A stretch of DNA of 64,000 bases from Candidatus Dormibacteria bacterium (GCA_049518775.1 JBEKRL010000004.1:4968-68967), one strand, 5' to 3'; positions 12,050-55,877 are shown, counted from the first letter of the stretch. Program-made: numbers and translations. The notes: generated from the sequence alone by a model not told the origin.

Positions 12050-12051
12050 CG

Positions 12052-30779: not shown

Positions 30780-32186
30780 TCAACTCGGGTACTGGCAGAA
30801 GCCCCGCACGATGAACCGCCCGTCGCCGCGCCGGCCGACGTATTGGCCCCGGTCCAGCACCACCGAACCCCGCAGAAGCACCGTTTCCACCCGCCCCGAG
30901 ATCTCCATGCCCTCGTAGCAGGAGTAGTCCACTGCCATGTGATGGGTGCTGGCGGAGATCGTGCTCCGCGCAGAGGGGTCGTAGATCACCACGTCGGCGT
31001 CGGCCCCTGGCCGCAGGCTGCCCTTACGGGGATACATGCCGAACATCTTGGCCGGCGAGGTCGAGGTCACGTCGACCCAGCGGGTGAGGCTGAGCATGCC
31101 TCGCACCACCCCTTGGTGGATCAGGTTCATGCGGTGCTCCACCCCGGGCAGCCCGTTGGGAATCTTGGAGAAGTCACCGCGGCCCAGGTCCTTCTGCCCC
31201 TGGAAGCGGAAGGGACAGTGGTCGGTGGCGACCACCGACAGGTCGCCGCCGTGGAGGCCGCGCCAGAGGGCCAGCTGATCGTGGCTCGACCTCAGCGGCG
31301 GGGAGCAGACGAATTTGGCACCTTCGAATCCGTCCCTGGCCAGATCGTCCTCGGAGAGGAAGAGGTATTGGGGGCAGGTCTCCGCGAAGACCGGCTGGCC
31401 CCGGTCGCGGGCCCCCACCACCTCCGCCAGCGCCGCCGCCGCCGAGACGTGCACGATGTACAGGGAGGCTCCGGCCACCCTGGCCAGCTGGATCGCCCGA
31501 TGGGTGGCCTCCCCCTCCAGGACCGCCGGCCTGGTCGAGGAGTGGAAACGGGGAGCCACCTCACCGCGGGCCAGGGCCTGGGCCACCAGCAGCTCGGTCG
31601 CGATCCCGTTCTCGGCGTGAATCTGGATCAGGGCCCGGTTGTGGGCGCCGTGCTGGAGCGCAGCCAGGATCTGGCCATCCGTGGAATAGGAGACACCGGG
31701 ATAGGCCATGTAGAGCTTGAAGCTGGTCACTCCCTCATCGACCAGCTGGTCCATCTCGCGCAGGGAGGACTCGTTGACATCGGCGAAGCCCATGTGAAAG
31801 CCGTAGTCGGCAGCGCAGTTGCCCTCCGCCTTGAGCCGCCAGCTCTCCAGCGCGTCATGCAGCGACCCACCCCGGATCTGGCTGGCGAAGTCCACGATGG
31901 TCGTGGTACCCCCCCAGATGGCCGCCCTGGTGCCGGTCTCAAAGGAGTCGGAGGCGACCGTGCCCGCGACCGGCAGCTCCATGTGGGTGTGGGCGTCCAC
32001 CCCGCCCGGCAGCACGTACCTGCCCGCCGCCTCCAGGACTCGGTCCGCCGACTCTGCGAAGGCCTGGCTCAGCTCCGACCGGGCGGCGGCCAGGCCGACG
32101 ACCCGCTGGTCTTCGATCAGCACGTCCGCCGGCTCGGCCGAGTCCGCAGTCAGGACGGTGCCACCCCGGATGATCAGGCGCGCCAC
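30780..32186 (-). CDS. dihydropyrimidinase / D-hydantoinase (cyclic amidohydrolase; HyuA/YgeZ-like position)
   Basis: GGVDAHTHMELP, FKLYMAY (carboxylated Lys), HAENG, DHCPF, KIPNGLPGVEHRM; GTG start with GGGAGATGAG RBS. Confidence 0.85.
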   Translation of the reverse strand: MARLIIRGGTVLTADSAEPADVLIEDQRVVGLAAARSELSQAFAESADRVLEAAGRYVLPGGVDAHTHMELPVAGTVASDSFETGTRAAIWGGTTTIVDFASQIRGGSLHDALESWRLKAEGNCAADYGFHMGFADVNESSLREMDQLVDEGVTSFKLYMAYPGVSYSTDGQILAALQHGAHNRALIQIHAENGIATELLVAQALARGEVAPRFHSSTRPAVLEGEATHRAIQLARVAGASLYIVHVSAAAALAEVVGARDRGQPVFAETCPQYLFLSEDDLARDGFEGAKFVCSPPLRSSHDQLALWRGLHGGDLSVVATDHCPFRFQGQKDLGRGDFSKIPNGLPGVEHRMNLIHQGVVRGMLSLTRWVDVTSTSPAKMFGMYPRKGSLRPGADADVVIYDPSARSTISASTHHMAVDYSCYEGMEISGRVETVLLRGSVVLDRGQYVGRRGDGRFIVRGFCQYPS

Positions 32187-32373
32187 CTCAGCTCATCTCC
32201 CGGCTCGCTCGGCCAGCGCCGGGGCAGCCCCTGAGACCTGGCTGCGGTTCGACCGGCTCGGCATCAGGGCCGCCGGTGGCGCTTGTCGAATCGGCGCCCT
32301 CCCGGCCCGCGGCCGGTGAGGCTCCGGAAAATGCCACCCGTCGCGCTGGCGCCGCCCCGAGGTGCCGCGGCCA

Positions 32374-33333
32374 TCAGTCCCTGGTGATTCGCGTGCCGGT
32401 CTCGCCCCGCAGCGCTCGCTCGATGTTGGCAGGGTTGGTCACGATCGCCTCCTTGCCACCGGCGTCGAGATAGTTGAGCACGGCCTGGATCTTCGGAGCC
32501 ATGCTGCCGGCGGCGAAGTGGGTCCCCTGTTGCAGGTACTCGCGGGCCTGCGCCGCCGTCAGATGATCGACGTCGTGCTGCTCCGGGGTACCGAAGTACA
32601 GCGCCACCTTCTCCACCGCGGTGGAGATCAGCAGCAGGTCCGCCCCCAGTTTTGCCGCCAGCAGGGCGGAGGCGAGGTCCTTGTCAATGACCGCCGCGAC
32701 CCCTCGCAGCTGCCCTTCGTCGTCGGCGACCACGGGGATCCCCCCGCCGCCCACGGTGATGACGATCGTGCCACTCTCGACCAGCCGCCGGATCGCGGGC
32801 AGCTCCACGATGCGCTTCGGGAGTGGGGACGCGACCACACGGCGCCAGCCCCGGTTGGCATCCTCGATCAGGGCCCAACCGTCCGCCCGCCGGCGCTCGG
32901 CCATCGCCTCGTCCATGAAGGAGCCTATGGGCTTGCTGGGGTGGGAGAAGGCCGGGTCGTCAGCCGCCACCACGGTCTGGCAGATGACAGTGACCGCCTC
33001 GCGGTCGATCCCCAGATCCAGAAACTCGTTGTGGAGGTTCTGCTGAAGTTCGTAGCCGATGGCGCCTTGGGAGTCGGCCCCGCACACGTCGAGCGGCACC
33101 TCATGGAGCTCGTGCGCAGCGAGCTCGGAGCGCCGGAGGATGAAGCCCACCTGGGGGCCGTTGCCATGACTCACGACCACCGTCCAGCCCGCCTTCACCA
33201 TCGCCGCGATGTGGTGGCTGGTCTCCTTGGCGGCGAGGTTCTGGTCCTCAACCGATTGGTGTGCCTTGTCGATGATCAGCGAGTTGCCCCCGATCGCCAC
33301 CACCGCGGTTCGCTCGGCCCTGGCCGCGCTCAT
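32374..33333 (-). CDS. arcC: carbamate kinase
   Basis: VVAIGGNSL, GNGPQVG, GGGGIPV, AAGSMAPKI motifs; ATG overlaps upstream stop (ATGA). Confidence 0.85.
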   Translation of the reverse strand: MSAARAERTAVVAIGGNSLIIDKAHQSVEDQNLAAKETSHHIAAMVKAGWTVVVSHGNGPQVGFILRRSELAAHELHEVPLDVCGADSQGAIGYELQQNLHNEFLDLGIDREAVTVICQTVVAADDPAFSHPSKPIGSFMDEAMAERRRADGWALIEDANRGWRRVVASPLPKRIVELPAIRRLVESGTIVITVGGGGIPVVADDEGQLRGVAAVIDKDLASALLAAKLGADLLLISTAVEKVALYFGTPEQHDVDHLTAAQAREYLQQGTHFAAGSMAPKIQAVLNYLDAGGKEAIVTNPANIERALRGETGTRITRD

Positions 33334-34307
33334 CGCATCGTCAGGGCCATCACGGCCTTCTGCCCGTGGAGGCGGTTCTCGGCCTGGTCATAGACCGCGG
33401 AGTGGGGCCCGTCGATGACCCCGTCGGTCACCTCGACGTTGCGTGCCGCCGGCAGGGGGTGCATGAAGATGGCATCCTCGCTCGCGGTGGCCATGTGGGC
33501 TTCGTCGGTCATCCAGGACCGGTACTTGTTGATGAGGCGGGTCTCCTCGGCCTCGTCCGAGGTGGTGACCATCGCTCCCCAGCTCTTGGCATACACCACG
33601 TCGGTACCCCGGAAGCCGGCCTCGAAGTCGTCCATCAGCTCGAAGCCGACATGGGCCCGCCGCGCGTTCTCCTTCATCTGCTCGACTATCTCGGGCATCA
33701 GAGCGAACTCCGGCGGGTGGACCAGGCGCACGTTCATGCCGAAACGCGGCAGCAGCAGCGCCAGGCTCTGCGGCGCACTCACCGGCTTCAGGTAGGTCGG
33801 ATCGTGCGCCCAGCTCACCGTGGCGGTCCGGCCCCGGAGGTCCTTGAAGCGCTCGAGGATCGTCATCAGGTCCGCCAGGGCCTGGTGGGGGTGGTAGACC
33901 TCGCACTGCATATTGAGCACCGGGACGCGGCTCGCCTCGGCGACGTCCCGGATGTAGCGGTTGCCCACGCCCCAGTCCACGTTGCGGATCGCGATCCCGT
34001 CGTTGTAGCGGCCGAGGATCTCCCCGATCTCCTTCGCCGTGTCGCCATGCGCGATCTGAGTGGTCCGGGATTCGATGAACTGCGCATGTCCTCCGAGCTG
34101 CGCCATTCCGGCCTCGAAGGACGCCCGGGTCCGGGTCGAGGAGAAGAAGAAGAGCATGGCCAGCACCTTGTCGCGCAGGAGCGGATGGGGGATCCCCAGC
34201 GCGCGCTCCCGCTTCAGAATGAAAGCCACGTCGAGCAGGGTCTCGATCTCGCCCAGGGTCCACTCCTGCAGGTCGATCATGTCGCGCCCGCGCAGGTCTG
34301 TCTGCAT
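33330..34307 (-). CDS. carbamoyltransferase, OTC/ATC superfamily (YgeW-like paralog 1)
   Basis: STRTR carbamoyl-phosphate motif, HPHQ and HPLPA motifs, N-terminal DLRGRDMIDLQEWTLGEI. Confidence 0.75.
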   Translation of the reverse strand: MQTDLRGRDMIDLQEWTLGEIETLLDVAFILKRERALGIPHPLLRDKVLAMLFFFSSTRTRASFEAGMAQLGGHAQFIESRTTQIAHGDTAKEIGEILGRYNDGIAIRNVDWGVGNRYIRDVAEASRVPVLNMQCEVYHPHQALADLMTILERFKDLRGRTATVSWAHDPTYLKPVSAPQSLALLLPRFGMNVRLVHPPEFALMPEIVEQMKENARRAHVGFELMDDFEAGFRGTDVVYAKSWGAMVTTSDEAEETRLINKYRSWMTDEAHMATASEDAIFMHPLPAARNVEVTDGVIDGPHSAVYDQAENRLHGQKAVMALTMR

Positions 34308-34312
34308 GGCCG

Positions 34313-35266
34313 TCAGTCCACCGCGCCGAGGACGAGTGCGAGCAGAGCCATGCGCATCACCACCCCGTTGAAGGCCTCGACCCAGTAGCGGGCGTGGCGA
34401 GTGGCGTCGACCTCGACCGGCAGCTCGTCCATCCGGGGCAGCGAGTGCACCACGATCGCCCCACCCTTGCCCTTGGTCCGCAGCAGCTCCCGGGTGACCC
34501 GGTAGGCGGCGGGAGTGCGACCCTTGTCCTCGGTCGCCTCGACGCGCGACTGGGTGTAGTCGGGCTGCACCACGGGCTCCATGTAGATGACATCGGCGCC
34601 CTCGATGCAGGCCTCGACGCTCTCCATCTCCTGGTAGCGGACGCTGCGCTCATCGAGCTCGGCCTTGAACTCCGGGAGCAGCGACATGTCCGGCGGGGAG
34701 ACCACGAACGCCTCCATGTCGAACTGGGACATCGCGTAGAGGATGGAGTGCATCGTGCGCATCCGCATGTCGCCGACCAGCAGAACCTTCAAGCCATCGA
34801 GGGTGCCCTTGTCCTGCCAGATGGTGTACAGGTCGGTGAGCACCTGGGTGGGGTGCTCGCCCCATCCGTCCCCGCAGTTGATGACCGGTACCGAGGCCCA
34901 TTTTGCCGCCTCGTGCGGCGCACCCTGCTGGAAGTGGCGCATGGCGATGACATCGCCGTAGTACTCGAGCATGTGCACCGTGTCCTTGATCGACTCCTGA
35001 TAGAAGTCGCCCGCCCTGGTCATCTTGGCATCGGAGAAGCCGAGGACGTGGCCGCCGAGACGGTGCATTGCTGCCTCGGTGGCCAGCCGGGTGCGGGTGC
35101 TCGGTTGGTAGAAGGCGGTGAGCAGAGTCTTGTGCTGGAGCAGGTCACCGTTGCGCCGCTCGGCTGCATACGGCTTGAGTTCGTCGGCCACCCGGAAGGT
35201 CTGGAAGTACTCCTCTCGCTCCATGTCCTTCAGGGACAGAATGTCGCGGCCGAGAAAGCTCCTCAT
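34313..35266 (-). CDS. carbamoyltransferase, OTC/ATC superfamily (paralog 2)
   Basis: STRTR, HPTQ, HSLPR motifs; ATG 35266 with GGAAGGGAGAA RBS (ORF open to 35416). Confidence 0.75.
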   Translation of the reverse strand: MRSFLGRDILSLKDMEREEYFQTFRVADELKPYAAERRNGDLLQHKTLLTAFYQPSTRTRLATEAAMHRLGGHVLGFSDAKMTRAGDFYQESIKDTVHMLEYYGDVIAMRHFQQGAPHEAAKWASVPVINCGDGWGEHPTQVLTDLYTIWQDKGTLDGLKVLLVGDMRMRTMHSILYAMSQFDMEAFVVSPPDMSLLPEFKAELDERSVRYQEMESVEACIEGADVIYMEPVVQPDYTQSRVEATEDKGRTPAAYRVTRELLRTKGKGGAIVVHSLPRMDELPVEVDATRHARYWVEAFNGVVMRMALLALVLGAVD

Positions 35267-35434
35267 GCCTGTTCTCCCTTCCAACTCCTGCTCATATACA
35301 TCTCCTTCTGCTGCCACTTCGCCGGCAGCTGGCGGGCACCTCGGTGCACGGGCCTTGAGCTGGCCCTGGCGCACGGAAAGCCCGGCGCCGCAGCCATCAT
35401 AGCTCGGGCGCCGCAAAGGGGGTGGACCTGTGGG

Positions 35435-37259: not shown

Positions 37260-38294
37260 TCAAACCAATTCCAGGATTGGCTCTCCCGGTTGGCTGTCCC
37301 GCACCTCTCCGATCAGCACCGCGGAGGGCAGCAACTCGACGAGGTGGGCAGCGCGGTCGGCCCCGAGCGTGATCACCAGTCCTCCGCTGGTCTGAGCGTC
37401 GCAGGCCAGGATGAGCAGGGCATCGGGGACGTCAGCCGCGATTCGAGTAACGGTTCGGGCCAGCTCCAGATTGCGCCTGGTTCCTCCCGGGATGCGTCCC
37501 TGCGCGACCAGGTCGAGGGCACCCGGCAGCAGGGGAAGGTCTGCGGCTCTAACTGTGACTTGAACTGACGAAGCCCGGGCGAGGTTGTGGAGGTGGCCCA
37601 GGAGCCCGAAGCCGGTCACATCGGTGGCGGCGTTGGCGCCGGCCTCGACCATGGCCTGGGCCGCCGCCCGGTTGAGCTGGCGCATGGTGGCGACCGCACC
37701 TGCCAGGACCGTCGCTGCCACCTGCTGAGCCTTGTGAGCGTTGAGGATCACCCCCGTTCCCAACGGTTTGGTGAGGAAGACCAGGTCTCCGGCGCGAGCG
37801 GTGGCGTTGGTGATCATCCGGCGGGGATCGACCGAGCCCAGCACCGCGCATCCGAAGATCGGCTCGGGACTGCGGATGGAGTGGCCACCGGCGATCGCGC
37901 AGCCGGCTTCGGCCGCCACCTCCGCGCCCCCCTCGAGGATCTGCCGGAGGATCTGCCCGTCGAGGTTGGCCAGGTCGAAGCCCACCAGGTTCAGGAGCAG
38001 GAGGGGAGTGCCACCCATCGCGTAGATGTCGGAGAGGGCGTTGGCGGTGGCGATGCGACCGTAGTCGCGGGGATCGTCGACTGGGGGCGGGAAGAAGTCG
38101 GTGGTGGCGACCACGGCCAGGCTGTCGCCAACCCGGTATACGGCTGCATCGTCCATGGTCTCGGCCGAGACCAGCAGGTCGCCGCTCGCCGGGGAGGCGA
38201 TCCCGGCCAGGATGGAGGCCAGGTCGGCCTGGGCGATCTTGGCGGAACACCCGCCCTGCCCGGTGAGCTCTGTCAGTCGCACGGATCCCGCCAC
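37260..38294 (-). CDS. selD: selenide, water dikinase (selenophosphate synthetase), Cys-type
   Basis: N-terminal RLTELTGQGGCSAKI (Cys at the Sec/Cys position), PurM-like fold motifs; GTG 38294 with GAAGGAG RBS (ORF open to 38477 would overlap upstream gene by 130 bp). Confidence 0.85.
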   Translation of the reverse strand: MAGSVRLTELTGQGGCSAKIAQADLASILAGIASPASGDLLVSAETMDDAAVYRVGDSLAVVATTDFFPPPVDDPRDYGRIATANALSDIYAMGGTPLLLLNLVGFDLANLDGQILRQILEGGAEVAAEAGCAIAGGHSIRSPEPIFGCAVLGSVDPRRMITNATARAGDLVFLTKPLGTGVILNAHKAQQVAATVLAGAVATMRQLNRAAAQAMVEAGANAATDVTGFGLLGHLHNLARASSVQVTVRAADLPLLPGALDLVAQGRIPGGTRRNLELARTVTRIAADVPDALLILACDAQTSGGLVITLGADRAAHLVELLPSAVLIGEVRDSQPGEPILELV

Positions 38295-38347: not shown

Positions 38348-39730
38348 CTACAGCACCGGCCAGCGTGGGCCGGGGTCGATTCCGGTGGACCGGTAGAGCC
38401 GCCCAGCTCGCTCCCGGGCCTGAGCCACCGCTCTCTCCTCGTCGATGGTGAGCAACCGCCCATCCCGGACCAGCCACCTGCCATCGACCATCACCGAGTC
38501 CACGTCAGCCCCGGTGGAGGCGTAGACCAGCGAGGAGACCGGGTTGAGGCCGGGCGCCATGTGGGCGCGCTCACGGTCGACGACCACCAGGTCAGCCTTC
38601 TTGCCCACCTCGAGCGAACCGATCTCGTGCTCCCAGCGCAGCGCCTTGGCTCCATTGATCGTGGCCATCTCCAGCACCGTCTCCGCGGGCACGACGGTGG
38701 GGTCCCGTGAGACCGCCTTGTGAACCAGGGCCGCCAGCTTCATCTCCGCGAGGAGGTCGTAGGTGTTGTTGCTGGGACCTCCGTCGCAGCCGAGGGCCAC
38801 GTTCACCCCGGCTGCCAGCAGCTTGGGGACCGGGCAGACCCCCGAGCCCAGCTTGGAGTTGGAGGAGGGGTTGTGGGACACGCTGGTGCCGGTCTCGGCC
38901 AGGATGCGAATGTCCTGGTCATCGATCCACACCATGTGCACCAGGACCACGTCAGGACCCACCAGGCCCACGCTGCGGGCGAACTCCACGGGAGACATCT
39001 GGTACGTCTGGCGCAGGAACTGGCGGTCCGCCTCGATCTCGGCCAGGTGCATGGTGATCTCCATGCCCCGGCTCCGGGCCTCGGACACCATCTCCCGGTA
39101 GAGCTCGGGAGACACCCCCCCCGGGGTCCGGGGGCCGAAACCGACGTGGATCCGGCCGTCGGCCGCCCCGTCCCAGCGGTCGAACATGTCGAGCGTGGTC
39201 AGCAGGCTCTCCTCGCGGGTCTCGCGCAGCCCCATCGGCATGGCGTTGTCCTGGGTTGCGTAGGTGGCGATGTCCATCACCTTCTTGGTCAGGCAGGCGC
39301 GGATGCCGGTGTCGACGACCACTTGGGCCACTCCGTCGAAGCCGTACCGATGCGCCAGGCCCGACTCCAGAAACGTGGTGGTGCCGGACCTCAACATCTC
39401 GGCGATGCAGAGGCGGGCGCTGACCACGCCATCCTCGTGGTCATAACTGCCCTGCAGCACCCACACCCGCTCGCAGAGCCATTGGACCAGCGCCATGTCG
39501 TCAGCGCAATCGCGGATCATCGCCTGCGCTTCGTGGACGTGGGTGTCGACCAGCCCGGGGATGATCAGCTTGCCGGCGAGGTCGATCTGCTCCTCGTCAG
39601 GATAGGCGCGCAGAACCTCGTCGGCCGGGCCCACCGCCGCGATGCGGTCCGCCCGCGCCACCAGCGCGCCGCGGCGAAAGATCCTGCGCCCGGGATCCAC
39701 CGTGATGATCGTCGCCCCGTTCAAGAGCAT
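38348..39730 (-). CDS. amidohydrolase, SsnA/chlorohydrolase/nucleobase deaminase-like
   Basis: metal-dependent hydrolase motifs (GLVDTHVHEAQ, ..MHLAE.., ..HNPSSN.., GCDGGPSNN); ATG 39730. Confidence 0.75.
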   Translation of the reverse strand: MLLNGATIITVDPGRRIFRRGALVARADRIAAVGPADEVLRAYPDEEQIDLAGKLIIPGLVDTHVHEAQAMIRDCADDMALVQWLCERVWVLQGSYDHEDGVVSARLCIAEMLRSGTTTFLESGLAHRYGFDGVAQVVVDTGIRACLTKKVMDIATYATQDNAMPMGLRETREESLLTTLDMFDRWDGAADGRIHVGFGPRTPGGVSPELYREMVSEARSRGMEITMHLAEIEADRQFLRQTYQMSPVEFARSVGLVGPDVVLVHMVWIDDQDIRILAETGTSVSHNPSSNSKLGSGVCPVPKLLAAGVNVALGCDGGPSNNTYDLLAEMKLAALVHKAVSRDPTVVPAETVLEMATINGAKALRWEHEIGSLEVGKKADLVVVDRERAHMAPGLNPVSSLVYASTGADVDSVMVDGRWLVRDGRLLTIDEERAVAQARERAGRLYRSTGIDPGPRWPVL

Positions 39731-47901: not shown

Positions 47902-49619
47902 TATGCCTGAATCGGGATCAGGCGGCCGGCCTCAACGTCGACCAGCCCCTGGTCGGTCAACTTCAACGCCGGGATCACCGACAGGCAGAGGAAGCTGAGG
48001 GTCGAGCAAGGGTGCGCCAGCCGGCAGCCCAGCGCCGCGGCGGCCTGATCCAGCGCCCCCAGCTGGGCCACGAGCACCGCCGCCGGGGCGTTCGACACCA
48101 GGCCCGCGACGGGCAGGGGGACGGTGGCCAGCACCCGGCCGCCGGCCGCCACCGCGAAGCCGCCCTTGGCCTGGATCACCGCCTCCATGGCCAGCAGCAT
48201 GTCGGCGTCGTCGACCCCCACCGCCAGCAGGTTGTGGGCGTCGTGGGCCACCGTGGAGGCGATCGCCCCCTGGCGCAGGCCCATCCCCCGTACCAGGCCC
48301 AGGCCCGCACGCCCGCTCCCGTGGTGGCGATCCACCACGATCATCTTGCAGAGGTCGCGCGCCGGGTCGGCCACCACCTGGCCGTCGCACCAGGGGGCCT
48401 CCTCGGTGAGGTGCCGGGTGGTGACCGTCCCGTCCTCCACCCCGATGACGGCGGCCGGCCCGGGCCGGCCCCGGATCATCAGCATCTCGGCCGTGAGCGG
48501 CGCCACCCGCAGCCCCTGCCAGGTCGGAGGCGGATCGCTGGCGGGGACAGCGAAGAGCGGCCGGCCCTGGTCCGCCACCAGGACCCCATCCTTGTAGACG
48601 GACTGGACCTGGAAGCGCTCCAGGTCCTCCACCACCACCAGGTCCGCCACGTACCCGGGTGCCACCACCCCGCGATCCCGGAGCCCGAAATACTGGGCGG
48701 TGTTCAGGGTCGCCATCCGCACCGCCTCGATGGGATCGAGCCCGGCCGCGATCGCCTCCCGCACCACTGAGTCGATGTGGCCCCGGGTCATGAGGTCAAC
48801 GGGGTCGCGATCGTCGGTGGCGAACAGGGCCCGGGGCGGATGCAGCTCCTGGATGACCGGCAACAGGGCGTGGAGGTTGCGGGTGGCGGATCCCTCGCGC
48901 ACCATCAGCCACATCCCCAGACGCAAGCGCTCCCGGGCCTCCTCCGGGGTAGTGCACTCGTGGTCGGACATGGGGCCGGCGGTCGCATAGGCGCAGAGGT
49001 CACGGCCGCTGAGTCCCGGCGCATGCCCATCGACCACTCCCCCCTGCGCGCGCACCGCCTCAATCTTGGCGAGCACGTCGGAATCGCCCGCCAGCACCCC
49101 GGAAATGTCCATCATCTCGGCCAAGCCGAGTACCTTGGGGTGCTCCAGGAGCGGCACCAGGTCCGCCGCACTGAGTGGTCTTAGCGGGGTCTCGAAGGGC
49201 GAGGCCGGCACGCAGGACGAGAGCATCACGTAGGTGGAGAGGGGCACGTCGCGGCCCGAATCGAGCACGTAGCGGATCCCGTCGATGCCCAGGACGTTGG
49301 CGAATTCGTGAGGATCCAGGACGACCGTGGTGGTCCCGTGGGGCACCACCATCTGGGCGAACTCGGCCAGCACCATCATCGTGCTCTCCAGATGCATGTG
49401 CGCGTCGATCAGCCCGGGTACCAGGAAGCGTCCCTCCAGCTCGACCTCGCGGATCGCCCGGTAGCCCGGTCCCAGTGCCACCACCCGGCCCTCGGCCACC
49501 ACCACATCGGTGGGCTCGACTCTCCCAGTACACACGTTGACCAGGTTGGCGCCTCGCAACAAGAGATCGGCGGGTTCGTGTCCGCGGGCGACCGCAATGC
49601 GATGACCGAGACCCATCAT
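47901..49619 (-). CDS. ade: adenine deaminase
   Basis: GLIDAHMHLESTM metal site, ~570 aa two-domain architecture. Confidence 0.85.
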   Translation of the reverse strand: MMGLGHRIAVARGHEPADLLLRGANLVNVCTGRVEPTDVVVAEGRVVALGPGYRAIREVELEGRFLVPGLIDAHMHLESTMMVLAEFAQMVVPHGTTTVVLDPHEFANVLGIDGIRYVLDSGRDVPLSTYVMLSSCVPASPFETPLRPLSAADLVPLLEHPKVLGLAEMMDISGVLAGDSDVLAKIEAVRAQGGVVDGHAPGLSGRDLCAYATAGPMSDHECTTPEEARERLRLGMWLMVREGSATRNLHALLPVIQELHPPRALFATDDRDPVDLMTRGHIDSVVREAIAAGLDPIEAVRMATLNTAQYFGLRDRGVVAPGYVADLVVVEDLERFQVQSVYKDGVLVADQGRPLFAVPASDPPPTWQGLRVAPLTAEMLMIRGRPGPAAVIGVEDGTVTTRHLTEEAPWCDGQVVADPARDLCKMIVVDRHHGSGRAGLGLVRGMGLRQGAIASTVAHDAHNLLAVGVDDADMLLAMEAVIQAKGGFAVAAGGRVLATVPLPVAGLVSNAPAAVLVAQLGALDQAAAALGCRLAHPCSTLSFLCLSVIPALKLTDQGLVDVEAGRLIPIQA

Positions 49620-49699: not shown

Positions 49700-49731
49700 G
49701 TGACCCCTCGGTTGAAGCCGATCAGTATAAT
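49700..49731 (+). promoter_or_regulatory. candidate promoter for plus-strand xdh operon (perfect TATAAT at 49726)
   Basis: TATAAT hexamer in 72% GC DNA, -35-like GTGACC ~19-20 nt upstream; 150 nt upstream of TTG 49883. Confidence 0.3.
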
Positions 49732-49882
49732 TCTGGGATGTCTGCCAGAGGATCGCGGGCTGCCTCCGGGAATTGGTGGGGCGCCCTCGGGTCGGCCAGC
49801 ATCACGCGGGGCTGGTGGCCCTGGCGGGTGGCGTCGGCAGGGCCGCCTTGGCGTCGGTCGCGACTCACAAGGTGGCCATGAC

Positions 49883-50806
49883 TTGACGGCTGCGGTCGGC
49901 GAGATCTATCTCGACCGAGGCCGGGCGGCAGCACCAGTTTCCCCAACCACCGTGCTGGTGGGGGTGCGCGGTGCGGGGGAGATGGCCACCGGGGTCATCC
50001 ACCGCCTGCGCCGGTCGGGGTTCCCCGTGGTGGCTGCGGAGATGGAGCAGCCGACGGTCGTTCGCCGCTCGGTGGCCTTCGCCAGCGCGGTCTGGGAGGG
50101 CCGCGTGGAGGTGGAGGGAGTCACCGCGGTGAGGGTCGACGACGGTGAGGGTGCGGCGGCGGCGTTGGGCTTGGGGCAGGTGGCCATCCTCGTGGACCCC
50201 AGCGCGGAGCTGCTGCTGGGGCTTCGCCCCCAGGTGCTGGTGGACGCCATCCTCGCCAAGCGCAATTGCGGCACCCGGCGGGCCGACGCTCCGCTGGTGA
50301 TCGGGCTCGGCCCGGGGTTCACCGCCGGGGACGATGTCGACGCCGTGGTCGAGACCAATCGGGGCCATCACCTCGGCCGTGTCCTGCTTCGGGGCAGCGC
50401 CCAGCCCAACACCGGGGTCCCCGCGCCTGTCGGCGGGCACAGCGCTGACCGGGTCCTGCGGGCGCCGCGCCCGGGCCGCCTGCTGGGGTGCCAGCGCATC
50501 GGCGATGAGGTGGCGGCCGGCACCGTGGTGGCAAGCGTGGATGGAGAGCCGGTGGTTTCGAGCATCGCGGGGACGCTGCGGGGCCTCCTGCATGACGGGG
50601 TGGAGGTCAGCAGCAACATGAAGGTCGGCGACGTCGACCCCCGCGCCGTCCCCGAATACTGCTTCACGATCTCCGACAAGGCCCGCGCCCTGGGGGGGGC
50701 GGTGCTGGAGGCAATCCTGATGCTCTATCCTCTCGCCGCCCAGCGCCCGGCCGGCGAGGTCGATGCCCTGACGGTGGCCGGCGGCGGGTGGCCAGGAACA
50801 TGTTGA
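49883..50806 (+). CDS. YqeB/EF2563-like (XdhC-Rossmann-like) selenium-dependent Mo-hydroxylase maturation protein candidate
   Basis: LVGVRGAGEMATGV Rossmann start and VIGLGPGFTAGDDVDAVVETNRGHHLGRV motif; TTG 49883 with AAGGTGG RBS (ORF open from 49667); family assignment from memory, not verified. Confidence 0.5.
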   Translation: MTAAVGEIYLDRGRAAAPVSPTTVLVGVRGAGEMATGVIHRLRRSGFPVVAAEMEQPTVVRRSVAFASAVWEGRVEVEGVTAVRVDDGEGAAAALGLGQVAILVDPSAELLLGLRPQVLVDAILAKRNCGTRRADAPLVIGLGPGFTAGDDVDAVVETNRGHHLGRVLLRGSAQPNTGVPAPVGGHSADRVLRAPRPGRLLGCQRIGDEVAAGTVVASVDGEPVVSSIAGTLRGLLHDGVEVSSNMKVGDVDPRAVPEYCFTISDKARALGGAVLEAILMLYPLAAQRPAGEVDALTVAGGGWPGTC

Positions 50807-51672
50807 GAATCGACGCCTACCACCGGCCTGCCACGCTCGACCTGGCGCTGGCACTGATGACGGAGGGCCGGACCGTCGTGGCGGGCGGGACCGACCTCCT
50901 GGTCAATCCTCGCTACCTGGTTGGGGTCACCGAGGTGGTGGACCTCGGTGACCTGCCGCTGGACTTCGTGGAGGTGGAACCGGACCTGATCCGCATCGGC
51001 GCCAATGCCACCATGGCCAGGGTGGCCGCCTCGCCGGAGGTTCGTGCCCTGGCTGACGGCATCGTCAGCCGGGGAGCGGCGGTCTGTGGGTCGCCCAACA
51101 TCCGCAACATGGCGACCCTGGTCGGCAACGTGGCCTCCGCGCTTCCGTCCTCCGACACTCCGCCACCCCTCCTGGTCCTGGGGGCCCGGGTGGTGCTGCG
51201 GAGCCGCAGCGCCACCCGCCGGTTGGCGCTGGAGGAGTTCTTCCTCGGACCGGCGGTCAGCGCGCGTCGCCCGGATGAGCTGGTCGAGAGTGTGGAGATT
51301 CCCCGTCCGCGGCCCGGCACCAGGGGTGGCTTCTACAAGGTGAAGCGCACCGCCGACGACATCGCCATCGTCAACAGCGCGGCCTGCCTGTGTGTCGAAG
51401 AGGGGCGGATAGCCTTCGCCCGAGTGGTGGTGGGAGCGGTGGCGCCCGTCCCGCTGCGGATTGCGGCTGCGGAGCAGCACCTGCTCGGTCGGCAGCCAAG
51501 CGAAGAGGTGCTCGCGGAGGCCGGCCGCCTCGCGGCCGCCGCCGCCCGGCCCATCACCGACCAGCGGGCGACGGCGGAGCATCGACGCCATCTGGCCGGG
51601 GTCTGCGCGACTCGTGCCCTGCGCCAGGCGGCGGGGCTGGATCCCCACGGCGCGGAGCTGGAGCATGCCTGA
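50800..51672 (+). CDS. xanthine dehydrogenase family FAD-binding subunit
   Basis: FAD-binding domain of molybdopterin dehydrogenases (VAGGTDLL...NMATLVGNVASA); ATG overlaps upstream stop (ATGTTGA). Confidence 0.75.
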   Translation: MLRIDAYHRPATLDLALALMTEGRTVVAGGTDLLVNPRYLVGVTEVVDLGDLPLDFVEVEPDLIRIGANATMARVAASPEVRALADGIVSRGAAVCGSPNIRNMATLVGNVASALPSSDTPPPLLVLGARVVLRSRSATRRLALEEFFLGPAVSARRPDELVESVEIPRPRPGTRGGFYKVKRTADDIAIVNSAACLCVEEGRIAFARVVVGAVAPVPLRIAAAEQHLLGRQPSEEVLAEAGRLAAAAARPITDQRATAEHRRHLAGVCATRALRQAAGLDPHGAELEHA

Positions 51673-52213
51673 GCCGACCCCGGTCACCATCGAGTGCACG
51701 GTCAACGGCCGGCTGCACCGCTGGCAGTCGCCGCCCGGGGCCACCCTGCTGGAGGCCCTCCGGGAGGCCCACGTGCGGGGGCCCAAGCTGGTGTGTGGCA
51801 CCGGCGACTGCTGCGCCTGTGGAGTCATGCTCAACGGGCGTTCGGTGAACTCCTGCTGCACCCTGGCGGCCCAGGCCGCGGGGGCGACCGTGCTCACCGT
51901 GGAGGGTTTGGCCGAGGATGGCCAGCTTCATCCCCTCCAGGCTGCCTTCCTGGAGACCGGCGCGGCCCAATGCGGCTTCTGCACCCCCGGCCTCCTCATC
52001 CGCGCCTACGCGCTCCTGCAGGCCCAGCCCGATCCCGACGAGGCGGCGGTGCGGGTCGCCCTCGGTGGCAACATCTGCCGCTGCACCGGCTACGTCAAGC
52101 CGGTGGAGGCCGTGTTGGAGGCAGCCAGGCGGATGCGGGCGGCGGCGGCGGATGCCACCCGCCAGGGGTCGGTCGAGCCCGGACTGCCCGCCTCGGACTC
52201 CGCCCTCCGATGA
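51665..52213 (+). CDS. xanthine dehydrogenase family [2Fe-2S] small subunit
   Basis: CGTGDCCACGV and CGFCTPG, NICRCTGY motifs; ATG overlaps upstream stop. Confidence 0.85.
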   Translation: MPEPTPVTIECTVNGRLHRWQSPPGATLLEALREAHVRGPKLVCGTGDCCACGVMLNGRSVNSCCTLAAQAAGATVLTVEGLAEDGQLHPLQAAFLETGAAQCGFCTPGLLIRAYALLQAQPDPDEAAVRVALGGNICRCTGYVKPVEAVLEAARRMRAAAADATRQGSVEPGLPASDSALR

Positions 52214-54687
52214 GCACCCGCACGCCACCACGCAGCGCCCCGCCGGGCGCGCCGGGCGTCGCCCCGCCCCTGCGCGTGGTCGGCAGGGGGCTGCCCCGGG
52301 TCGACGGGCGGGCCCTGGTCACGGGCAGCCCCGTGTACACGGCGGACATGGACGTGCCGGACATGCTCCACGGCAAGATCCTGCACTCGCCGCTGGCCCA
52401 TGCCCGGATCGTGGCCATCGACACCGGCGCCGCTCGGGCCCTGCCGGGGGTTCGCGCGGTGCTGACCCACTTAGACGTGCCCGCGATCCTTCACGCCACC
52501 GCCGGCCAACCCTTCCCGGAGCTATCGCCCTACGACACCCGACTGCTCGATCCCCACCTGCGTTATGTCGGGGACTGGGTCGCCCTGGTGGCGGCCGAGA
52601 GCGAGGCCATCGCGGAGGCGGCGCTGGCGCTGATCAAGGTGACCTACCAGGAGCTGCCGGCAGTGTTCGACCCCGTCGAGGCGATGCGCGACGGCGCCCC
52701 TAAGCTCCACGAGCCCGACGTCGCCCACCCGCTCTTCGAGCGGTCGCCCGGGCCCACCTATGACGCGCGGCACAACATCGCCGGCCACGAGGAGATCTGG
52801 CGCGGGGCCGACTTCGCGACCACCATGGCCGCGGCCGACCACATCGTCACCGGGACCTACCACACTCCGCGGATCGCCCACTGCGCGCTGGAGCCCCACG
52901 TGGCGATCGCCCACGCCGACGGATACGACCGGCTCAACGTTTGGAGCAGCACCCAGGTCCCATACCACACCCGCCGTCAGCTGGCCCGGGTCCTCCAGTG
53001 GCCGGTCTCGCGCATCCGCGTGATCAAGCTGCGCGTGGGCGGCGGCTTCGGCGGTAAGCAGGAGATGGTGCTCGAGCCCGCGGTCGCGGTCCTGGCGATG
53101 GCCACCGGACGACCGGTGCGGATCCTCTACAGTCGCCAGGAGGAGTTCGCCGCCAGCCGGGTCCGGCACCCGATGACCATTCACATGCGCTCTGGGGTGG
53201 CCAGCGACGGGACCCTTCTCGCCCTGGAGATGCGCGTCATCTCTGACACCGGGGCCTACGGGGGGCACGGTCTGACGGTGGCCCAAGGGGCTGGTCACAA
53301 GACGCTCTGTCTCTACCGGGCCCGCGCCTATCACTTCGTGGCCGACGCGGTCTACACCAACTCGCCGGTGTCGGGAGCGATGCGCGGCTACGGGGCACCC
53401 CAGGGGTACTTCGCACTGGAGTCGCACATGGACGAGATCGCGGCCAGGCTGGGGCTGGACCCCCTCGACTTCCGCCGCCGCAACCATGTCCGCCGGGGCG
53501 ACTACGACCCCATCAATCTGGACTCCTCCTCAGGAGTGCCGCGGTCACAGCGGCACTTTCGCTCCTGTGCCCTGCCGGAGTGCCTCACCCGGGGCGCCGA
53601 GGCGATCGGCTGGGACCTGCCGTTCGATCGTGGTCAGGGGGTCGTGCGGCGCGGCCGTGGCCTGGCCACCGCCATGCAGGGCAGCGGCGTCGCCGGTTCA
53701 GAGCTGGGCGGGGCCAGCATCAAGATGAACGAGGACGGCTCCTTCAACGTGATGACCGGGGCCACCGACATCGGCCAGGGCAGTGACACCGTCCTGGCTC
53801 AGATCGCGGCCGAGACCCTCGGCGTCGGGCTGGACAAGATCATCATGCACTCGTCCGACACTGACATCGACGTGTTCGACTACGGCTCCTACGCCTCCTC
53901 CACCACCTTCGTCACCGGCACCGGGGTGCGGCTGGCCGCCGAGGCGGTCCGGGACCAGATCCTGGCGGTGGCGGCCCGGATGACGGGGTGCCCCGCCGCC
54001 GACCTGCACCTGGAGGATGGGCGTGTCCACGCCGCCGGTGGGCCCCTCGGGCTCACCCTGGCCGAGGTGGCGCTAGAGACCCTCTACGGTTCCCGGCGAC
54101 AGCAGATCATGGCCAGCGGGCACGCCTCCTGCCATGACTCGCCTCCACCCTTCCACGCCCAGTTCGTGGAGATTGCCGTCGACTGCGAGACGGGCCAGAT
54201 CCGGGTTGAACGCTCCGTCAATGCCATCGACATGGGTCGGGCCATCAACCCCCGCCTTGCCAGCGGCCAGGTGGAGGGGGCGATCGCGATGGGGCTGGGA
54301 TTCGCGCTCAGCGAGGAGCTGCTGATGGACGAGCGCGGGCAGGTCCGCAATCCCGCCTTCGTCGATTACAAGGTGCTCTCCTGCCTCGACATGCCCGCCA
54401 TGACCACCATCCTGGTGGACGACCCCGAGCCCACCGGTCCCTTCGGGGCGAAGTCCTGCGGCGAGGTCCCGATCAACACCCCGGCTCCGGCCGTGGCCAA
54501 CGCCCTCTTTGATGCGCTGGGCATCCGGGTGCGCAGTCTGCCGATCACCGCCGAGAAGGTGCTGGCCGCCCTCCGGGCCAGGGACTCTGCGCCGACCGGG
54601 CCGGTCGCTCACCCCGGTGGCCCCTTCGCTCCGCAGGACGGCGCGGGGCACCAGTCGGTGCCCCGGTGCTCCGGCCCGGGATCGTGA
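52210..54687 (+). CDS. xanthine dehydrogenase family molybdopterin-binding large subunit
   Basis: a/b hammerhead + MoCo-binding domains, 825 aa; ATGA overlap with FeS subunit. Confidence 0.85.
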   Translation: MSTRTPPRSAPPGAPGVAPPLRVVGRGLPRVDGRALVTGSPVYTADMDVPDMLHGKILHSPLAHARIVAIDTGAARALPGVRAVLTHLDVPAILHATAGQPFPELSPYDTRLLDPHLRYVGDWVALVAAESEAIAEAALALIKVTYQELPAVFDPVEAMRDGAPKLHEPDVAHPLFERSPGPTYDARHNIAGHEEIWRGADFATTMAAADHIVTGTYHTPRIAHCALEPHVAIAHADGYDRLNVWSSTQVPYHTRRQLARVLQWPVSRIRVIKLRVGGGFGGKQEMVLEPAVAVLAMATGRPVRILYSRQEEFAASRVRHPMTIHMRSGVASDGTLLALEMRVISDTGAYGGHGLTVAQGAGHKTLCLYRARAYHFVADAVYTNSPVSGAMRGYGAPQGYFALESHMDEIAARLGLDPLDFRRRNHVRRGDYDPINLDSSSGVPRSQRHFRSCALPECLTRGAEAIGWDLPFDRGQGVVRRGRGLATAMQGSGVAGSELGGASIKMNEDGSFNVMTGATDIGQGSDTVLAQIAAETLGVGLDKIIMHSSDTDIDVFDYGSYASSTTFVTGTGVRLAAEAVRDQILAVAARMTGCPAADLHLEDGRVHAAGGPLGLTLAEVALETLYGSRRQQIMASGHASCHDSPPPFHAQFVEIAVDCETGQIRVERSVNAIDMGRAINPRLASGQVEGAIAMGLGFALSEELLMDERGQVRNPAFVDYKVLSCLDMPAMTTILVDDPEPTGPFGAKSCGEVPINTPAPAVANALFDALGIRVRSLPITAEKVLAALRARDSAPTGPVAHPGGPFAPQDGAGHQSVPRCSGPGS

Positions 54688-55877
54688 CCAGCCCGCACCC
54701 GGATGGTGCTGCCGTCTTCGCCGTCCTCGGTGAGTTGCTGGCCCGGGGGGAGGCGGTGGCCCTGGCCACTATCGTCGGGCAGCGCGGCTCGACGCCGCGC
54801 GAGATCGGAACCAAGATGTTGGTCCGCTCGAACGGGGCCATCGTCGGCACCGTGGGCGGTGGAGCGGCCGAGGCGGAGGTCTGCCGGCAGGCGGCGGTGG
54901 TGCTGGAGAGCGGTCGGTCCCAGCTCCTCACCCTCGACTTCAACGGCACCCTGGAGCAGCCGGGGCTGGGCATCTGCGGGGGCAGCGTCGACGTGTTCAT
55001 CGAGTCCTGGAGCAGCTGTCCCCCCCAGGCCGCGCCCGGCCCAGAGGCGGTCGGTGGGGCCGCGGAGGTTGTCCGCGCCGCAGTGGGCGCCCTGGAGGAG
55101 GGCCGTCCCGTCACCCTGGTCACGGTGATTGACGCCGAGGGCCGCTGGGCGGCCGCTGCCGGCGCGCGGATCCTTTTCGGCGACCGCGGGCCAGTCAGTG
55201 CGGTCACCGCCCCGGAGGAGCTGATGGCCCAGGCGGCGCTGGCCACAGTCGGCCCGCGGCCCGGGCCGACGGCAGGGACCTGGGTCCGGACGCTTACCGC
55301 GGGGGACGGCGTCGCGCAGGCCCGGGTCCTGGTCGAGCCGCTGCGCCCGCCGGAGGCGCTCCTCATCATGGGTGGCGGGCACATCGCCCAGCCCTTGGCC
55401 GCGATCGCCACCATCTGCGGCCTCGCCGTGACCGTTGTCGACGACCGCCCGGGCCTTGCCACCCCGGCCCGCTTCCCAACGGCTCGAGCCGTGACGGCCG
55501 ATGCGGCCAGCTTCCTGGCCCAGCGCCTCCCCGGGGCCGAGACCCATGTGGTGTTCGTGAGCCGGGGGCCAGCGCAGGACATGGCCGGGCTGCGGGCTCT
55601 CCTGAACTCCGCCGCCGGCGGTTACGTGGGGCTGATCGGCAGTGAACGCCGGGTCTGGTCCGTGCTCACGGCGCTCCGCGCCGAGGGCGTGCCAGCGGAA
55701 CAGTTGGCCCGGGTCCACGGGCCGGTGGGGCTCGCCCTCGGCGGCACGTCACCGGCGGAGATCGCCCTGGAGATCATGGCCGAGATGCTGGGGTGGCGGC
55801 ACCAGAGCACCGGTCAGGAGCGGTCGGCCCGCCTGCGCCGGCGCCTCCTCACTCCGGTGGCGCCGGCCTCAGGCTGA
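54684..55877 (+). CDS. XdhC/CoxI family molybdenum-cofactor insertion accessory protein
   Basis: XdhC N-domain (AVLGELLARGEAVALATIVG..GSTPR) + Rossmann C-domain (LLIMGGGHIAQPLA); GTGA overlap with large subunit. Confidence 0.75.
   Translation: MTSPHPDGAAVFAVLGELLARGEAVALATIVGQRGSTPREIGTKMLVRSNGAIVGTVGGGAAEAEVCRQAAVVLESGRSQLLTLDFNGTLEQPGLGICGGSVDVFIESWSSCPPQAAPGPEAVGGAAEVVRAAVGALEEGRPVTLVTVIDAEGRWAAAAGARILFGDRGPVSAVTAPEELMAQAALATVGPRPGPTAGTWVRTLTAGDGVAQARVLVEPLRPPEALLIMGGGHIAQPLAAIATICGLAVTVVDDRPGLATPARFPTARAVTADAASFLAQRLPGAETHVVFVSRGPAQDMAGLRALLNSAAGGYVGLIGSERRVWSVLTALRAEGVPAEQLARVHGPVGLALGGTSPAEIALEIMAEMLGWRHQSTGQERSARLRRRLLTPVAPASG

Follow-up and report, generated by a model that had tools for sequence, protein, structure and literature searches.

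We analyzed a 64,000-nt stretch of DNA from a Candidatus Dormibacteria bacterium (GCA_049518775.1, JBEKRL010000004.1:4968-68967; hereafter the window), in which a purine catabolic gene block of 25-28 kb probably encodes a purine-to-pyruvate supercluster that follows the reductive urate (2,8-dioxopurine) route with a non-canonical enzyme set, in which three enzymes are exchanged, and with two carbamoyltransferases, CT1 and CT2, in its lower part. The gene array itself is real. The reductive urate pathway was worked out in gut bacteria and reconstituted in 2025 (Li et al., PMC12507026; Liu et al., bioRxiv 10.1101/2025.04.24.650524). According to these studies, urate is reduced to 2,8-dioxopurine by XdhD/DOPDH, 2,8-dioxopurine is dearomatized by YgfK or UacX, SsnA and HyuA open both rings to give 2,3-diureidopropionate, one ureido group is phosphorolyzed by YgeW with subsequent ATP formation by YqeA, the other ureido group is hydrolyzed by YgeY, and 2,3-diaminopropionate (DAP) is converted to pyruvate via YgeX. 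The original prediction for this DNA, made from the sequence alone, regarded the route as biochemically undescribed, which the 2025 reconstitution contradicts; its functional guess was otherwise largely right, the pathway is already known, and the replacement of YgfK by a luciferase-like oxidoreductase (LLM) has been published as a prediction. What the prediction missed is that the lack of YgeY goes with a second transferase, CT2, which resembles aspartate carbamoyltransferase (ATCase). The proposed dual-transferase lower pathway without YgeY is new.

We place the window's pathway in the 2,8-dioxopurine route with high confidence because it holds clear homologues of SsnA, HyuA, YgeX, YqeA, the YqeB domain, XdhD and XdhA, in agreement with the earlier assignment of the block to the purine supercluster type of E. 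coli ygeW...xdhD. Family support was taken as hidden Markov model (HMM) bit scores against curated cutoffs (NCBIfam/TIGR, with Pfam for domains); SsnA, HyuA, YgeX, carbamate kinase, YqeB, SelD and adenine deaminase all score above theirs (Table 1). SsnA, the marker enzyme chosen by Li et al. (PMC12507026), is 33% identical to E. coli SsnA and falls just under the cutoff of a second model (TIGR03314, 428 versus 455.5 bits); the HyuA-type hydantoinase, YgeX and the carbamate kinase are 42.5%, 38% and 46% identical to E. coli HyuA, YgeX and YqeA, respectively. The carbamate kinase also bears out the idea that ATP formation ends the pathway. At a GC content of ~70% across the whole window, the raw lists of open reading frames (ORFs) are crowded with shadow frames; reading frames were picked by the GC content at third codon positions, and they match the gene calls on six independent metagenome contigs (L001-L006) that encode the identical 989-amino-acid (aa) molybdenum enzyme. 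By these HMM matches and gene calls, the genes listed in the original prediction lie about where it had placed them.

The scheme that we propose runs as follows. Adenine deaminase and a second deaminase-type amidohydrolase (Amh2) would funnel aminopurines to oxopurines, the three-subunit XdhA-like enzyme whose operon is led by YqeB would oxidize hypoxanthine and xanthine to urate, and the XdhD-like enzyme, in which the FeS and molybdenum cofactor (Moco) domains are fused and which has a flavin adenine dinucleotide (FAD) subunit, would reduce urate to 2,8-dioxopurine. An F420H2-dependent LLM would replace YgfK/UacX for the dearomatization, coupled to ring hydrolysis by SsnA, and HyuA would then open the ureidomethyl-hydantoin ring to give 2,3-diureidopropionate, by analogy with the role described by Li et al. 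(PMC12507026). CT1 and CT2 would each phosphorolyze one ureido group, replacing the combination of one transferase and the M20 hydrolase YgeY, and the single carbamate kinase could make up to two ATP per urate, compared with one in E. coli. Finally, DAP would be converted to pyruvate and 2 NH3 via YgeX and/or a CysK-like pyridoxal 5'-phosphate (PLP) enzyme, PLP497. A Cys-type SelD inside the operon, YqeB and an XdhC-like chaperone, which together correspond to E. coli YqeB plus SelD, would supply a labile-selenium Mo cofactor.

The two carbamoyltransferases differ from each other and from YgeW. The original prediction described both as YgeW-like, which suits CT1 in part, in that it shares the second-substrate residues of YgeW: the positions of N167 and D231 in the ornithine carbamoyltransferase (OTCase) ArgI are Ser and Lys, respectively, and a KSW motif is present. 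Nonetheless, CT1 scores far below the YgeW cutoffs (NF005538, 171 versus 453 bits; TIGR03316, 160 versus 500 bits), is 34% identical to YgeW and 30% to ArgI, lacks the YgeW insertions, and carries the motifs HPHQ and HPLP, not the HP[TMF]Q and H[AVC]LP of YTCase. Its orthologues (47-57% identical) adjoin YgeY in loci from Ktedonobacterales, Acidobacteria and Peptococcaceae, where they stand in the place of YgeW and CT2 is absent. For CT2 the description does not hold: the protein is ATCase-like, reaches 34 bits on the YgeW model, and is 38% identical to PyrB. Its carbamoyl-phosphate site is intact (S52-T55, R105, H134 and Q137), and R167 and T168 are also retained. ATCase binds aspartate through R167, R229, Q231 and K84 (Table 1 of Shi et al. 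2015), and only R167 of this set is kept in CT2, which has the replacements R229 to P, Q231 to V, T228 to E and K84 to Y as well as HSLP for HPLP, all invariant in 8 homologues. The Glu and Pro at positions 228 and 229 would suit a beta-amino or beta-ureido substrate group in place of the beta-carboxylate of aspartate. Pseudo-ATCases of this kind were flagged by Barba et al. 2013 (PMC4016543), whose subgroup 2, with the H[ST]LP motif, is represented by Nocardioides sp. JS614, where the gene has a ygeW homologue, xdh genes and hyuA as neighbors; a Nocardioides sp. contig (L170) carries a CT2 that is 79% identical to that of the window in the same context as described for JS614. Their subgroup 1 member Rxyl_2847 phosphorolyzes allantoate, that is diureidoacetate, which is one carbon shorter than diureidopropionate (PMC4016543). 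On these grounds we lean slightly towards the view that both transferases act on the two ureido groups, and two carbamoyl-phosphates and two ATP per urate would be its most economical reading. The link between pseudo-ATCase subgroup 2 and the reductive purine pathway is new, and we found no description in the literature of a dual-transferase or F420 variant beyond those of Li et al. and Barba et al.

The gene neighborhoods of CT2 point in the same direction. Neither tblastn nor HMM scans of the ORFs revealed YgeY in any part of the window, as the original prediction had noted. A metagenome scan for CT2 gave at least 597 confirmed relatives, from which 80 that are 70-88% identical were kept, and neighborhoods were counted in the 40 CT2-anchored metagenome loci that span at least 10 kb: 27 have LLM, 27 SsnA, 28 CT1, 22 carbamate kinase, 26 PLP497, 1 YgeY and 0 YgfK, and none of the mapped CT2 loci had a pyr-operon context. 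In a pool of 97 loci, each at least 10 kb long, YgeY was present in 1 of the 41 CT2-positive and in 31 of the 56 CT2-negative loci (Fisher p = 8e-9), a p value that overstates the evidence, since the loci come from two differently anchored searches (CT2 and SsnA), are often truncated and are phylogenetically non-independent. Two sister Dormibacteria, with PLP497 proteins 80% and 84% identical to that of the window, offer a natural control. They keep the order FeS/Moco, YgeX, LLM, SsnA, Amh2 and PLP497, and add an amidohydrolase of PF07969 (the UacY family per Li et al.) and YgeY (NF009555, 444 versus 321 bits); transferase, kinase and SelD are all absent within 10 kb downstream of PLP497, so that these lineages carry hydrolases instead of transferases. 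Weighing against the dual-transferase proposal, 12 of the 41 CT2 loci have no CT1 within range.

The slot of YgfK, next to SsnA, is occupied by the LLM. A tblastn search for YgfK in the window was negative, the PF01180 domain was also not found, and UacX was likewise absent. All nine PDB matches of the LLM with E<1e-10 are F420 enzymes (Mer, FGD1 and Adf; the best is Mer, 1z69, with 1.8e-41), and its 18 best NCBIfam matches are all F420 families, although none reaches the equivalog cutoff (Mer, 181 versus 349 bits). Of the pooled loci, 32 have an LLM, adjacent or close to SsnA, and 11 have full-length YgfK, but no locus has both. The LLM had been counted by the original prediction as an extra enzyme; instead, it stands in the place of YgfK, as Li et al. 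proposed for Chloroflexota, whose clusters have an F420 LLM for YgfK as the predicted 'yanthine reductase' (PMC12507026). The substitution has thus already been published as a prediction, and we consider it fairly likely from family and position that the LLM is the dioxopurine reductase; a point on the other side is that tblastn and HMM scans found no F420 biosynthesis genes in the window. Anaerolineae loci among the relatives of the window carry LLMs that are 66-69% identical. In four Ktedonobacterales loci (L009, L010, L015 and L047, at ~11400-12730), SsnA is followed by a protein of ~400 aa that is 38-39% identical to the N-terminal 400 residues of YgfK; these bacteria use neither full-length YgfK nor LLM, which qualifies the claim that Chloroflexota lack YgfK/UacX-type reductases. 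Just past the purine cluster of one sister Dormibacteria genome (GCA_054609555.1, JBTRWD010000012.1; L172, 12226-20465), a run of genes encodes a PucR regulator, an aldehyde dehydrogenase, a class-III aminotransferase, a CN_hydrolase, a dihydropyrimidinase-like amidohydrolase and a second luciferase-like oxidoreductase. The run resembles a reductive pyrimidine (Pyd) pathway with an LLM for PydA, parallel to the exchange of YgfK for LLM.

Two molybdenum hydroxylases are encoded in the block, both of which carry Ald_Xan_dh_C, MoCoBD_1 and MoCoBD_2. The fused enzyme is 37% identical to XdhD over 1010 aa (TIGR03313, 725 bits versus a cutoff of 1102) and shares with it the GEGK loop, in which E630 corresponds to XdhD E606, proposed to orient urate (Li et al., PMC12507026), as well as the 'AEIP' context of the catalytic Glu; the gene of its FAD subunit overlaps its own by 4 nt. 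The large subunit of the three-subunit enzyme is 38% identical to XdhA, has a 'GEVP' context of the catalytic Glu that resembles the 'GEPP' of XdhA, and lacks the GEGK Glu. The 2Fe-2S subunit is 42% identical to the E. coli XdhC Fe-S subunit and is encoded in a frame different from its neighbors; because it sits in another frame, a 997-aa ORF had seemed to be without Fe-S. From these features we rather favor the fused enzyme as DOPDH and the three-subunit enzyme as xanthine dehydrogenase (XDH). The reverse, with the fused enzyme as XDH and the three-subunit enzyme behind YqeB as the selenium-dependent urate reductase, is unlikely in our judgment but is the alternative that survives best. The co-transcription of adenine deaminase and the fused enzyme would also be compatible with an XDH function of the latter, the three-subunit enzyme comes immediately after YqeB, each enzyme is 37-40% identical to both XdhA and XdhD (and 50% to the other), and not all SsnA-linked Mo enzymes have the GEGK loop, which is absent from those of most other CT2-type and Firmicute loci. 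All of these weigh against our assignment. On the other hand, a fused FeS-Moco protein with a small adjacent FAD subunit is the XdhD-YgfM architecture, XdhA has no such loop, the catalytic-Glu contexts pair the two enzymes with XdhD and XdhA in the order that we favor, and the fused enzyme is encoded on the same strand as YgeX, LLM and SsnA. We rejected XdhD Glu606 as a universal DOPDH marker, as conservation of the GEGK loop is limited to Dormibacteria, Ktedonobacterales and E. coli. Since the two paralogous genes face opposite strands, they give rise to long inverted repeats (44415-46713 versus 51936-54194; 335, 204 and 134 nt at 70-72% complementarity), which points to a gene duplication that is old yet still visible in the DNA. 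A search of the intergenic gaps for shared operator-like repeats returned only chance matches besides these.

PLP497 is a fold-type-II PLP enzyme with a core like that of CysK and cystathionine beta-synthase (CBS), an N-terminal extension of ~80 aa and a C-terminal extension of ~100 aa. Its AlphaFold2 (AF2) model has a pLDDT of 88.6, and the top Foldseek matches are cysteine synthase, CBS and beta-cyanoalanine synthase (target-normalized TM 0.75-0.83, 20-28% identity); H109-K110 and S138-G140-N141, the latter in an S-x-G-N substrate loop, are invariant. We rejected PLP497 as a second DAP ammonia-lyase by homology, as both sequence and predicted fold separate it from YgeX and group it with CysK, CBS and beta-cyanoalanine synthase. 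The family comprises at least 8000 scored proteins at E<=1e-10; among the matches listed, identities are ~60% or more, and the sources name the relatives only 'cysteine synthase' or 'PLP-dependent enzyme'. Because of the CysK-like core, the position that is mostly directly upstream of CT2, and the absence of PLP497 where YgeX fills its slot, we suspect that PLP497 may be a beta-lyase acting on DAP or on ureido-alanine. Such a conserved PLP497 family traveling with CT2 is new. Two observations count against a role of this kind: the window holds both YgeX and PLP497, which leaves PLP497 no unique role, and a homologue that is 76% identical (L173, 10001-11491) has no purine genes within 10 kb; therefore, the family is not strictly tied to purine clusters. 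The neighbors of that homologue are a peptide ABC transporter, an S9 peptidase and a transposase. In many CT2-type loci, PLP497 and CT2 are separated by another PALP-fold protein, PALP466 (~466 aa), which has a weak threonine-synthase-like match (75 bits); it is encoded in L170 (11532-12932) and, at 57-66% identity, in L106, L127, L139, L160 and L167, and it is absent from the window. Both PLP497 and PALP466 are missing in the two loci where YgeX fills their slot.

These properties of PLP497 bear on a second alternative, in which only CT1 works in the pathway, CT2 is a biosynthetic or moonlighting ATCase paralogue, and one ATP is made per urate. The second ureido group would then be removed otherwise, either by a YgeY/UacY hydrolase that could be encoded elsewhere in the genome, or by PLP497 through beta-elimination of urea from 3-ureido-alanine (albizziin). 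The view afforded by the window is limited to 64 kb of the genome, the carbamate kinase gene is single, the PLP497 core belongs to a class of enzymes that expel beta-leaving groups, and CT2 not only keeps R167 and T168 but also exceeds the ATCase equivalog cutoff of NCBIfam (247 versus 237 bits), all of which speaks for this alternative. A CT2-family protein of L170 (15344-16297) also passes this cutoff, with 256 bits; automated annotation is therefore likely to call such proteins PyrB in many genomes. Against this stands the loss of R229, Q231 and K84 from the aspartate site, together with the location of CT2 inside the purine operon, 5 nt from CT1. The company that CT2 keeps in the other loci, with SsnA, LLM and CT1 in most and YgeY missing from 40 of 41, also tells against this alternative, and the sister lineages that have YgeY and UacY have no transferase within 10 kb downstream. 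We regard CT1 acting alone as unlikely, and retain the proposal that both transferases work on diureidopropionate.

The third question concerns selenium, to which the original prediction had tied the locus. SelD is 42% identical to E. coli SelD and, as claimed, of the Cys type: a TGT codon aligns with Cys17 of the E. coli protein and Lys20 is conserved; its gene lies inside the operon, 65 nt from its upstream neighbor. The protein encoded at the head of the XDH operon belongs to the YqeB family and shares 49% identity with the E. coli YqeB segment 270-526. The XdhC-like protein, in turn, matches residues 3-256 at 30-37% identity, so that the two halves of E. coli YqeB, XdhC-like (3-256) and YqeB (270-526), are two genes flanking the XDH genes in the window. 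This split YqeB together with an in-operon SelD is new in Dormibacteria. The Mo large subunits score 181-186 bits against the sulfurated XDH of R. capsulatus (1JRO), compared with 363-406 bits against 4-hydroxybenzoyl-CoA reductase and ~381-383 bits, summed, against the selenium-dependent nicotinate dehydrogenase 3HRD. By bit score, both enzymes are thus far from sulfurated XDHs, as the prediction required, and nearer to the other two. In C. sporogenes both XDH and DOPDH need SelD, DOPDH purified from a selD mutant being inactive, and purine growth of C. difficile needs YqeB (bioRxiv 10.1101/2025.04.24.650524). Taken together, gene content makes it reasonably likely that the Mo enzymes are selenium-dependent.

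Alternatively, the hydroxylases could use the ordinary sulfurated cofactor, with SelD serving selenocysteine or selenouridine and lying in the operon by accident. An XdhC-type chaperone is indeed present, and YqeC, which came together with YqeB in every gut strain that Liu et al. examined (bioRxiv 10.1101/2025.04.24.650524), is, as had been noted before, not found in the window. Moreover, none of the 40 CT2-anchored loci contains SelD or YqeB, nor do the visible parts of the sister clusters. Both absences tell against selenium dependence, and because of the second, such dependence is not a general property of the variant; it looks like a feature of the cluster of this lineage. We nevertheless find a sulfurated cofactor improbable, given the YqeB score (349 versus 220 bits) at the head of the XDH operon, the place of SelD within a catabolic operon, the clostridial genetics, the distance from known sulfurated XDHs, and the absence of SelA, SelB and tRNA-Sec (or any other tRNA) from the 64 kb. 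The tblastn and HMM scans of the remaining ORFs also found no MocA or YqeC there. Finally, an oxidative uricase/allantoin pathway or the clostridial 'xanthinase' fermentation (Rabinowitz) is hardly credible, even though allantoin/oxalurate catabolism likewise involves XDH-type enzymes, a cyclic amidohydrolase and carbamate kinase and the original prediction invoked clostridial loci, because the window shows nothing diagnostic of the xanthinase route, which gives glycine rather than DAP and has been reported from Clostridia and Bacilli, and no uricase, HIU hydrolase, OHCU decarboxylase or allantoate-degrading enzyme, because the allantoinase model TIGR03178 reaches only 269 bits versus 358 on hydantoinase, and because SsnA and YgeX, markers of the reductive pathway, exceed their cutoffs.

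The block consists of a minus-strand array of 14 genes, from adenine deaminase at 49619 down to an NCS1-family permease at 28300, and a diverging plus-strand operon (Table 1). The array runs in the order adenine deaminase, FAD subunit, fused FeS/Moco enzyme, YgeX, LLM, SsnA, Amh2, SelD, PLP497, CT2, CT1, carbamate kinase, HyuA and NCS1 permease, and several neighbors overlap by 4 nt (carbamate kinase and CT1, for example) or stand 5-65 nt apart; the operon has the order YqeB, FAD subunit, 2Fe-2S subunit, Moco subunit and XdhC. The cluster probably extends to the permease, a probable importer of purine or urate judged by its family, homologues of which (60-65% identity) occur in the CT2-type loci L088 and L106. 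A protein identical to PLP497 is deposited at NCBI from a Candidatus Dormibacteria metagenome-assembled genome. At least 37 data blocks of JGI and ENA metagenomes have contigs with the identical 989-aa Mo enzyme, and the nearest genome representatives by SsnA identity are two metagenome-assembled genomes (80% and 70%), followed by Ktedonobacterales (~57%).

Table 1. Genes of the purine catabolic block, with coordinates in the window and supporting matches (bit scores versus curated cutoffs where given).
Feature	Position	Strand	Support
NCS1-family nucleobase:cation symporter	28300..30168	-	TIGR00800 118 bits, under cutoff 353
HyuA-type D-hydantoinase/dihydropyrimidinase	30780..32186	-	TIGR02033 554 bits vs 393
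Carbamate kinase (YqeA equivalent): carbamoyl-P + ADP to ATP	32374..33333	-	NF009007 385 bits vs 266
CT1, short YgeW-like catabolic carbamoyltransferase	33330..34307	-	OTCase HMM 255 bits vs 306 (best)
CT2, ATCase-like 'pseudo-ATCase' carbamoyltransferase	34313..35266	-	TIGR00670 247 bits vs 237
PLP497, fold-type-II PLP enzyme, 497 aa	35435..36928	-	Pfam PALP 51 bits
SelD selenophosphate synthetase, Cys-type, inside operon	37260..38282	-	TIGR00476 358 bits vs 125
Amh2, deaminase-type amidohydrolase	38348..39730	-	5'-deoxyadenosine deaminase HMM 415 vs 522; TRZ/ATZ
SsnA, hydrolytic opening of reduced 2,8-dioxopurine ring	39795..41165	-	NF005540 459 bits vs 444
LLM, F420-type luciferase-like oxidoreductase	41392..42444	-	PF00296 213 bits
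YgeX 2,3-diaminopropionate ammonia-lyase, DAP to pyruvate + 2 NH3	42634..43779	-	NF006058 356 bits vs 276
Fused 2Fe-2S + Moco hydroxylase, XdhD architecture, 989 aa	43997..46966	-	Fer2, Fer2_2, Ald_Xan_dh_C, MoCoBD_1/2
FAD-binding subunit (YgfM/XdhB-like) of fused Mo enzyme	46963..47892	-	PF00941 70, PF03450 46 bits
Adenine deaminase (adenine to hypoxanthine)	47901..49619	-	TIGR01178 557 bits vs 472.5
YqeB-domain protein (marker of Se-dependent Mo-cofactor maturation)	49883..50806	+	TIGR03309 349 bits vs 220
FAD subunit of three-subunit XDH	50800..51672	+	XdhB model NF043083 161 bits, under cutoff; PF00941, PF03450
2Fe-2S small subunit of three-subunit XDH, 182 aa	51665..52213	+	Both Cys motifs; Fer2_2
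Moco large subunit, XdhA-like	52210..54687	+	NF043082 732 bits vs 780
XdhC-family Moco insertion/maturation chaperone	54684..55877	+	PF02625, PF13478

Upstream of the oxopurines, one of the two amidohydrolases that had been called SsnA-like is indeed SsnA, and the other, Amh2, is of the deaminase type. We rejected Amh2 as a second SsnA, given its 197 bits on the SsnA model and its deaminase-type relatives in the PDB (top matches 4dyk, 4gbd and 4f0r, the last named MTA/SAH deaminase). It is nearest to MTA/adenosine-deaminase and 8-oxoguanine-deaminase-type enzymes, is 28% identical to E. coli GuaD, and is a probable aminopurine or nucleoside deaminase feeding the pathway. In L170 (8599-9969), an 8-oxoguanine deaminase (NF006055, 583 versus 532 bits), which yields urate, is encoded, and its homologues (44-49% identical) in L088, L093, L106, L127, L139, L160 and L167 make it frequent in CT2-type clusters, which suggests that oxidized guanine is among the intended substrates of such clusters.

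Other genes surround the block. An acetate kinase gene (PF00871, 379 bits; 26445-27737, minus strand) lies 562 nt past the permease on the same strand, and it could extend the energy logic (pyruvate to acetyl-P to acetate and ATP) or be unrelated. Flanking the XdhC end, 55849-58981 encodes a universal stress protein (Usp), a multi-GAF histidine kinase (NarX/UhpB-like) and a NarL-type response regulator, which are candidate regulators of the cluster; the six contigs of the same organism (L001-L006) all carry Usp and the beginning of the kinase gene as well. An Rfam scan of the whole window at the gathering threshold found no riboswitches or other RNA regulators. At 9088-14300 (plus strand) lies an unrelated sugar-type cluster with a Fe-ADH/DHQ-synthase-like protein, a GntR regulator, a DegT/PseC-type aminotransferase, a family-4 glycosidase and a ROK kinase.

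Studies of the reductive urate pathway have so far dealt with gut bacteria, and the window belongs to a distinct version in Dormibacteria, Chloroflexota and Actinomycetota of soil, peat and sediment. We propose tentatively, and at somewhat less than even chances, that in this widespread environmental version CT1 and CT2 are regiospecific, two ATP are gained per urate, the LLM is driven by F420H2 and PLP497 handles the C3 amino acid. If true, three new enzyme activities would be defined, and phosphorolysis of both ureido groups would double the ATP from this step, which is relevant to energy-limited soil bacteria and to engineered uricolytic probiotics, for which Li et al. raise the question of how enzymes are best combined to balance flux against energy conservation (PMC12507026). 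A commentary on the pathway describes the order of ureido cleavage as unresolved, and Percudani raised the question of whether the 2- or the 3-ureido group goes first; two separate transferases give a direct handle on it, and if each takes one ureido group, they would form a clean natural system for the disputed order. In addition, the CT2-type family, which passes the ATCase cutoff, and the PLP497-type family, named 'cysteine synthase', are probably misannotated.

Compared with known systems, the window shows the following likenesses and differences. First, it shares with the E. coli ygeW...xdhD cluster SsnA (33%), HyuA (43%), YgeX (38%), carbamate kinase (46%) and the YqeB domain (49%), the fused FeS-Moco architecture of XdhD with its FAD partner, an XdhA-like XDH, and ATP formation via carbamoyl-phosphate. 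It differs in having an F420-type LLM for YgfK, no YgeY, no YqeC or MocA nearby, no true YgeW but a shorter YgeW-like CT1 with an ATCase-like CT2 added, YqeB split into YqeB and XdhC genes, and SelD, adenine deaminase and PLP497 inside the cluster. Second, the SsnA neighborhoods of Chloroflexota (Li et al. 2025) have the same LLM (PF00296) next to SsnA for YgfK/UacX; these were scored by Pfam only, with PF00185 as 'YgeW' and PF00291 as 'YgeX', and two distinct transferases, the loss of YgeY and the PLP497 family were not reported there (PMC12507026). Third, CT2 has the STRT, HPTQ and H[ST]LP (HSLP) motifs and the missing RxQ of subgroup 2 of Barba et al. and adjoins a ygeW homologue, xdh genes and hyuA, all as in that subgroup, with JS614 compared by description only; the 'GX[SC]' motif at R230-Q232 is not reproduced, the alignment showing P-V-V instead. 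Barba et al. gave subgroup 2 no substrate or pathway (PMC4016543). The ureidoglycine carbamoyltransferase Rxyl_2847 of subgroup 1 likewise acts by phosphorolysis of a diureido acid, but CT2 does not lie in an allantoin context. Fourth, the C. difficile variant (UacX, UacY and YgeY), with its fully hydrolytic lower pathway, indicates that the enzymes for the reductase step and for ureido cleavage can be exchanged as modules; the sister Dormibacteria resemble it in having PF07969 (the UacY family) and YgeY, whereas the window uses neither hydrolase and appears fully phosphorolytic. At last, the arginine deiminase pathway, with its catabolic OTCase and carbamate kinase, has the same logic of ureido phosphorolysis to carbamoyl-phosphate and substrate-level phosphorylation, and the window differs from it in that the substrate would be a purine-derived diureido acid and two transferases would feed one kinase.

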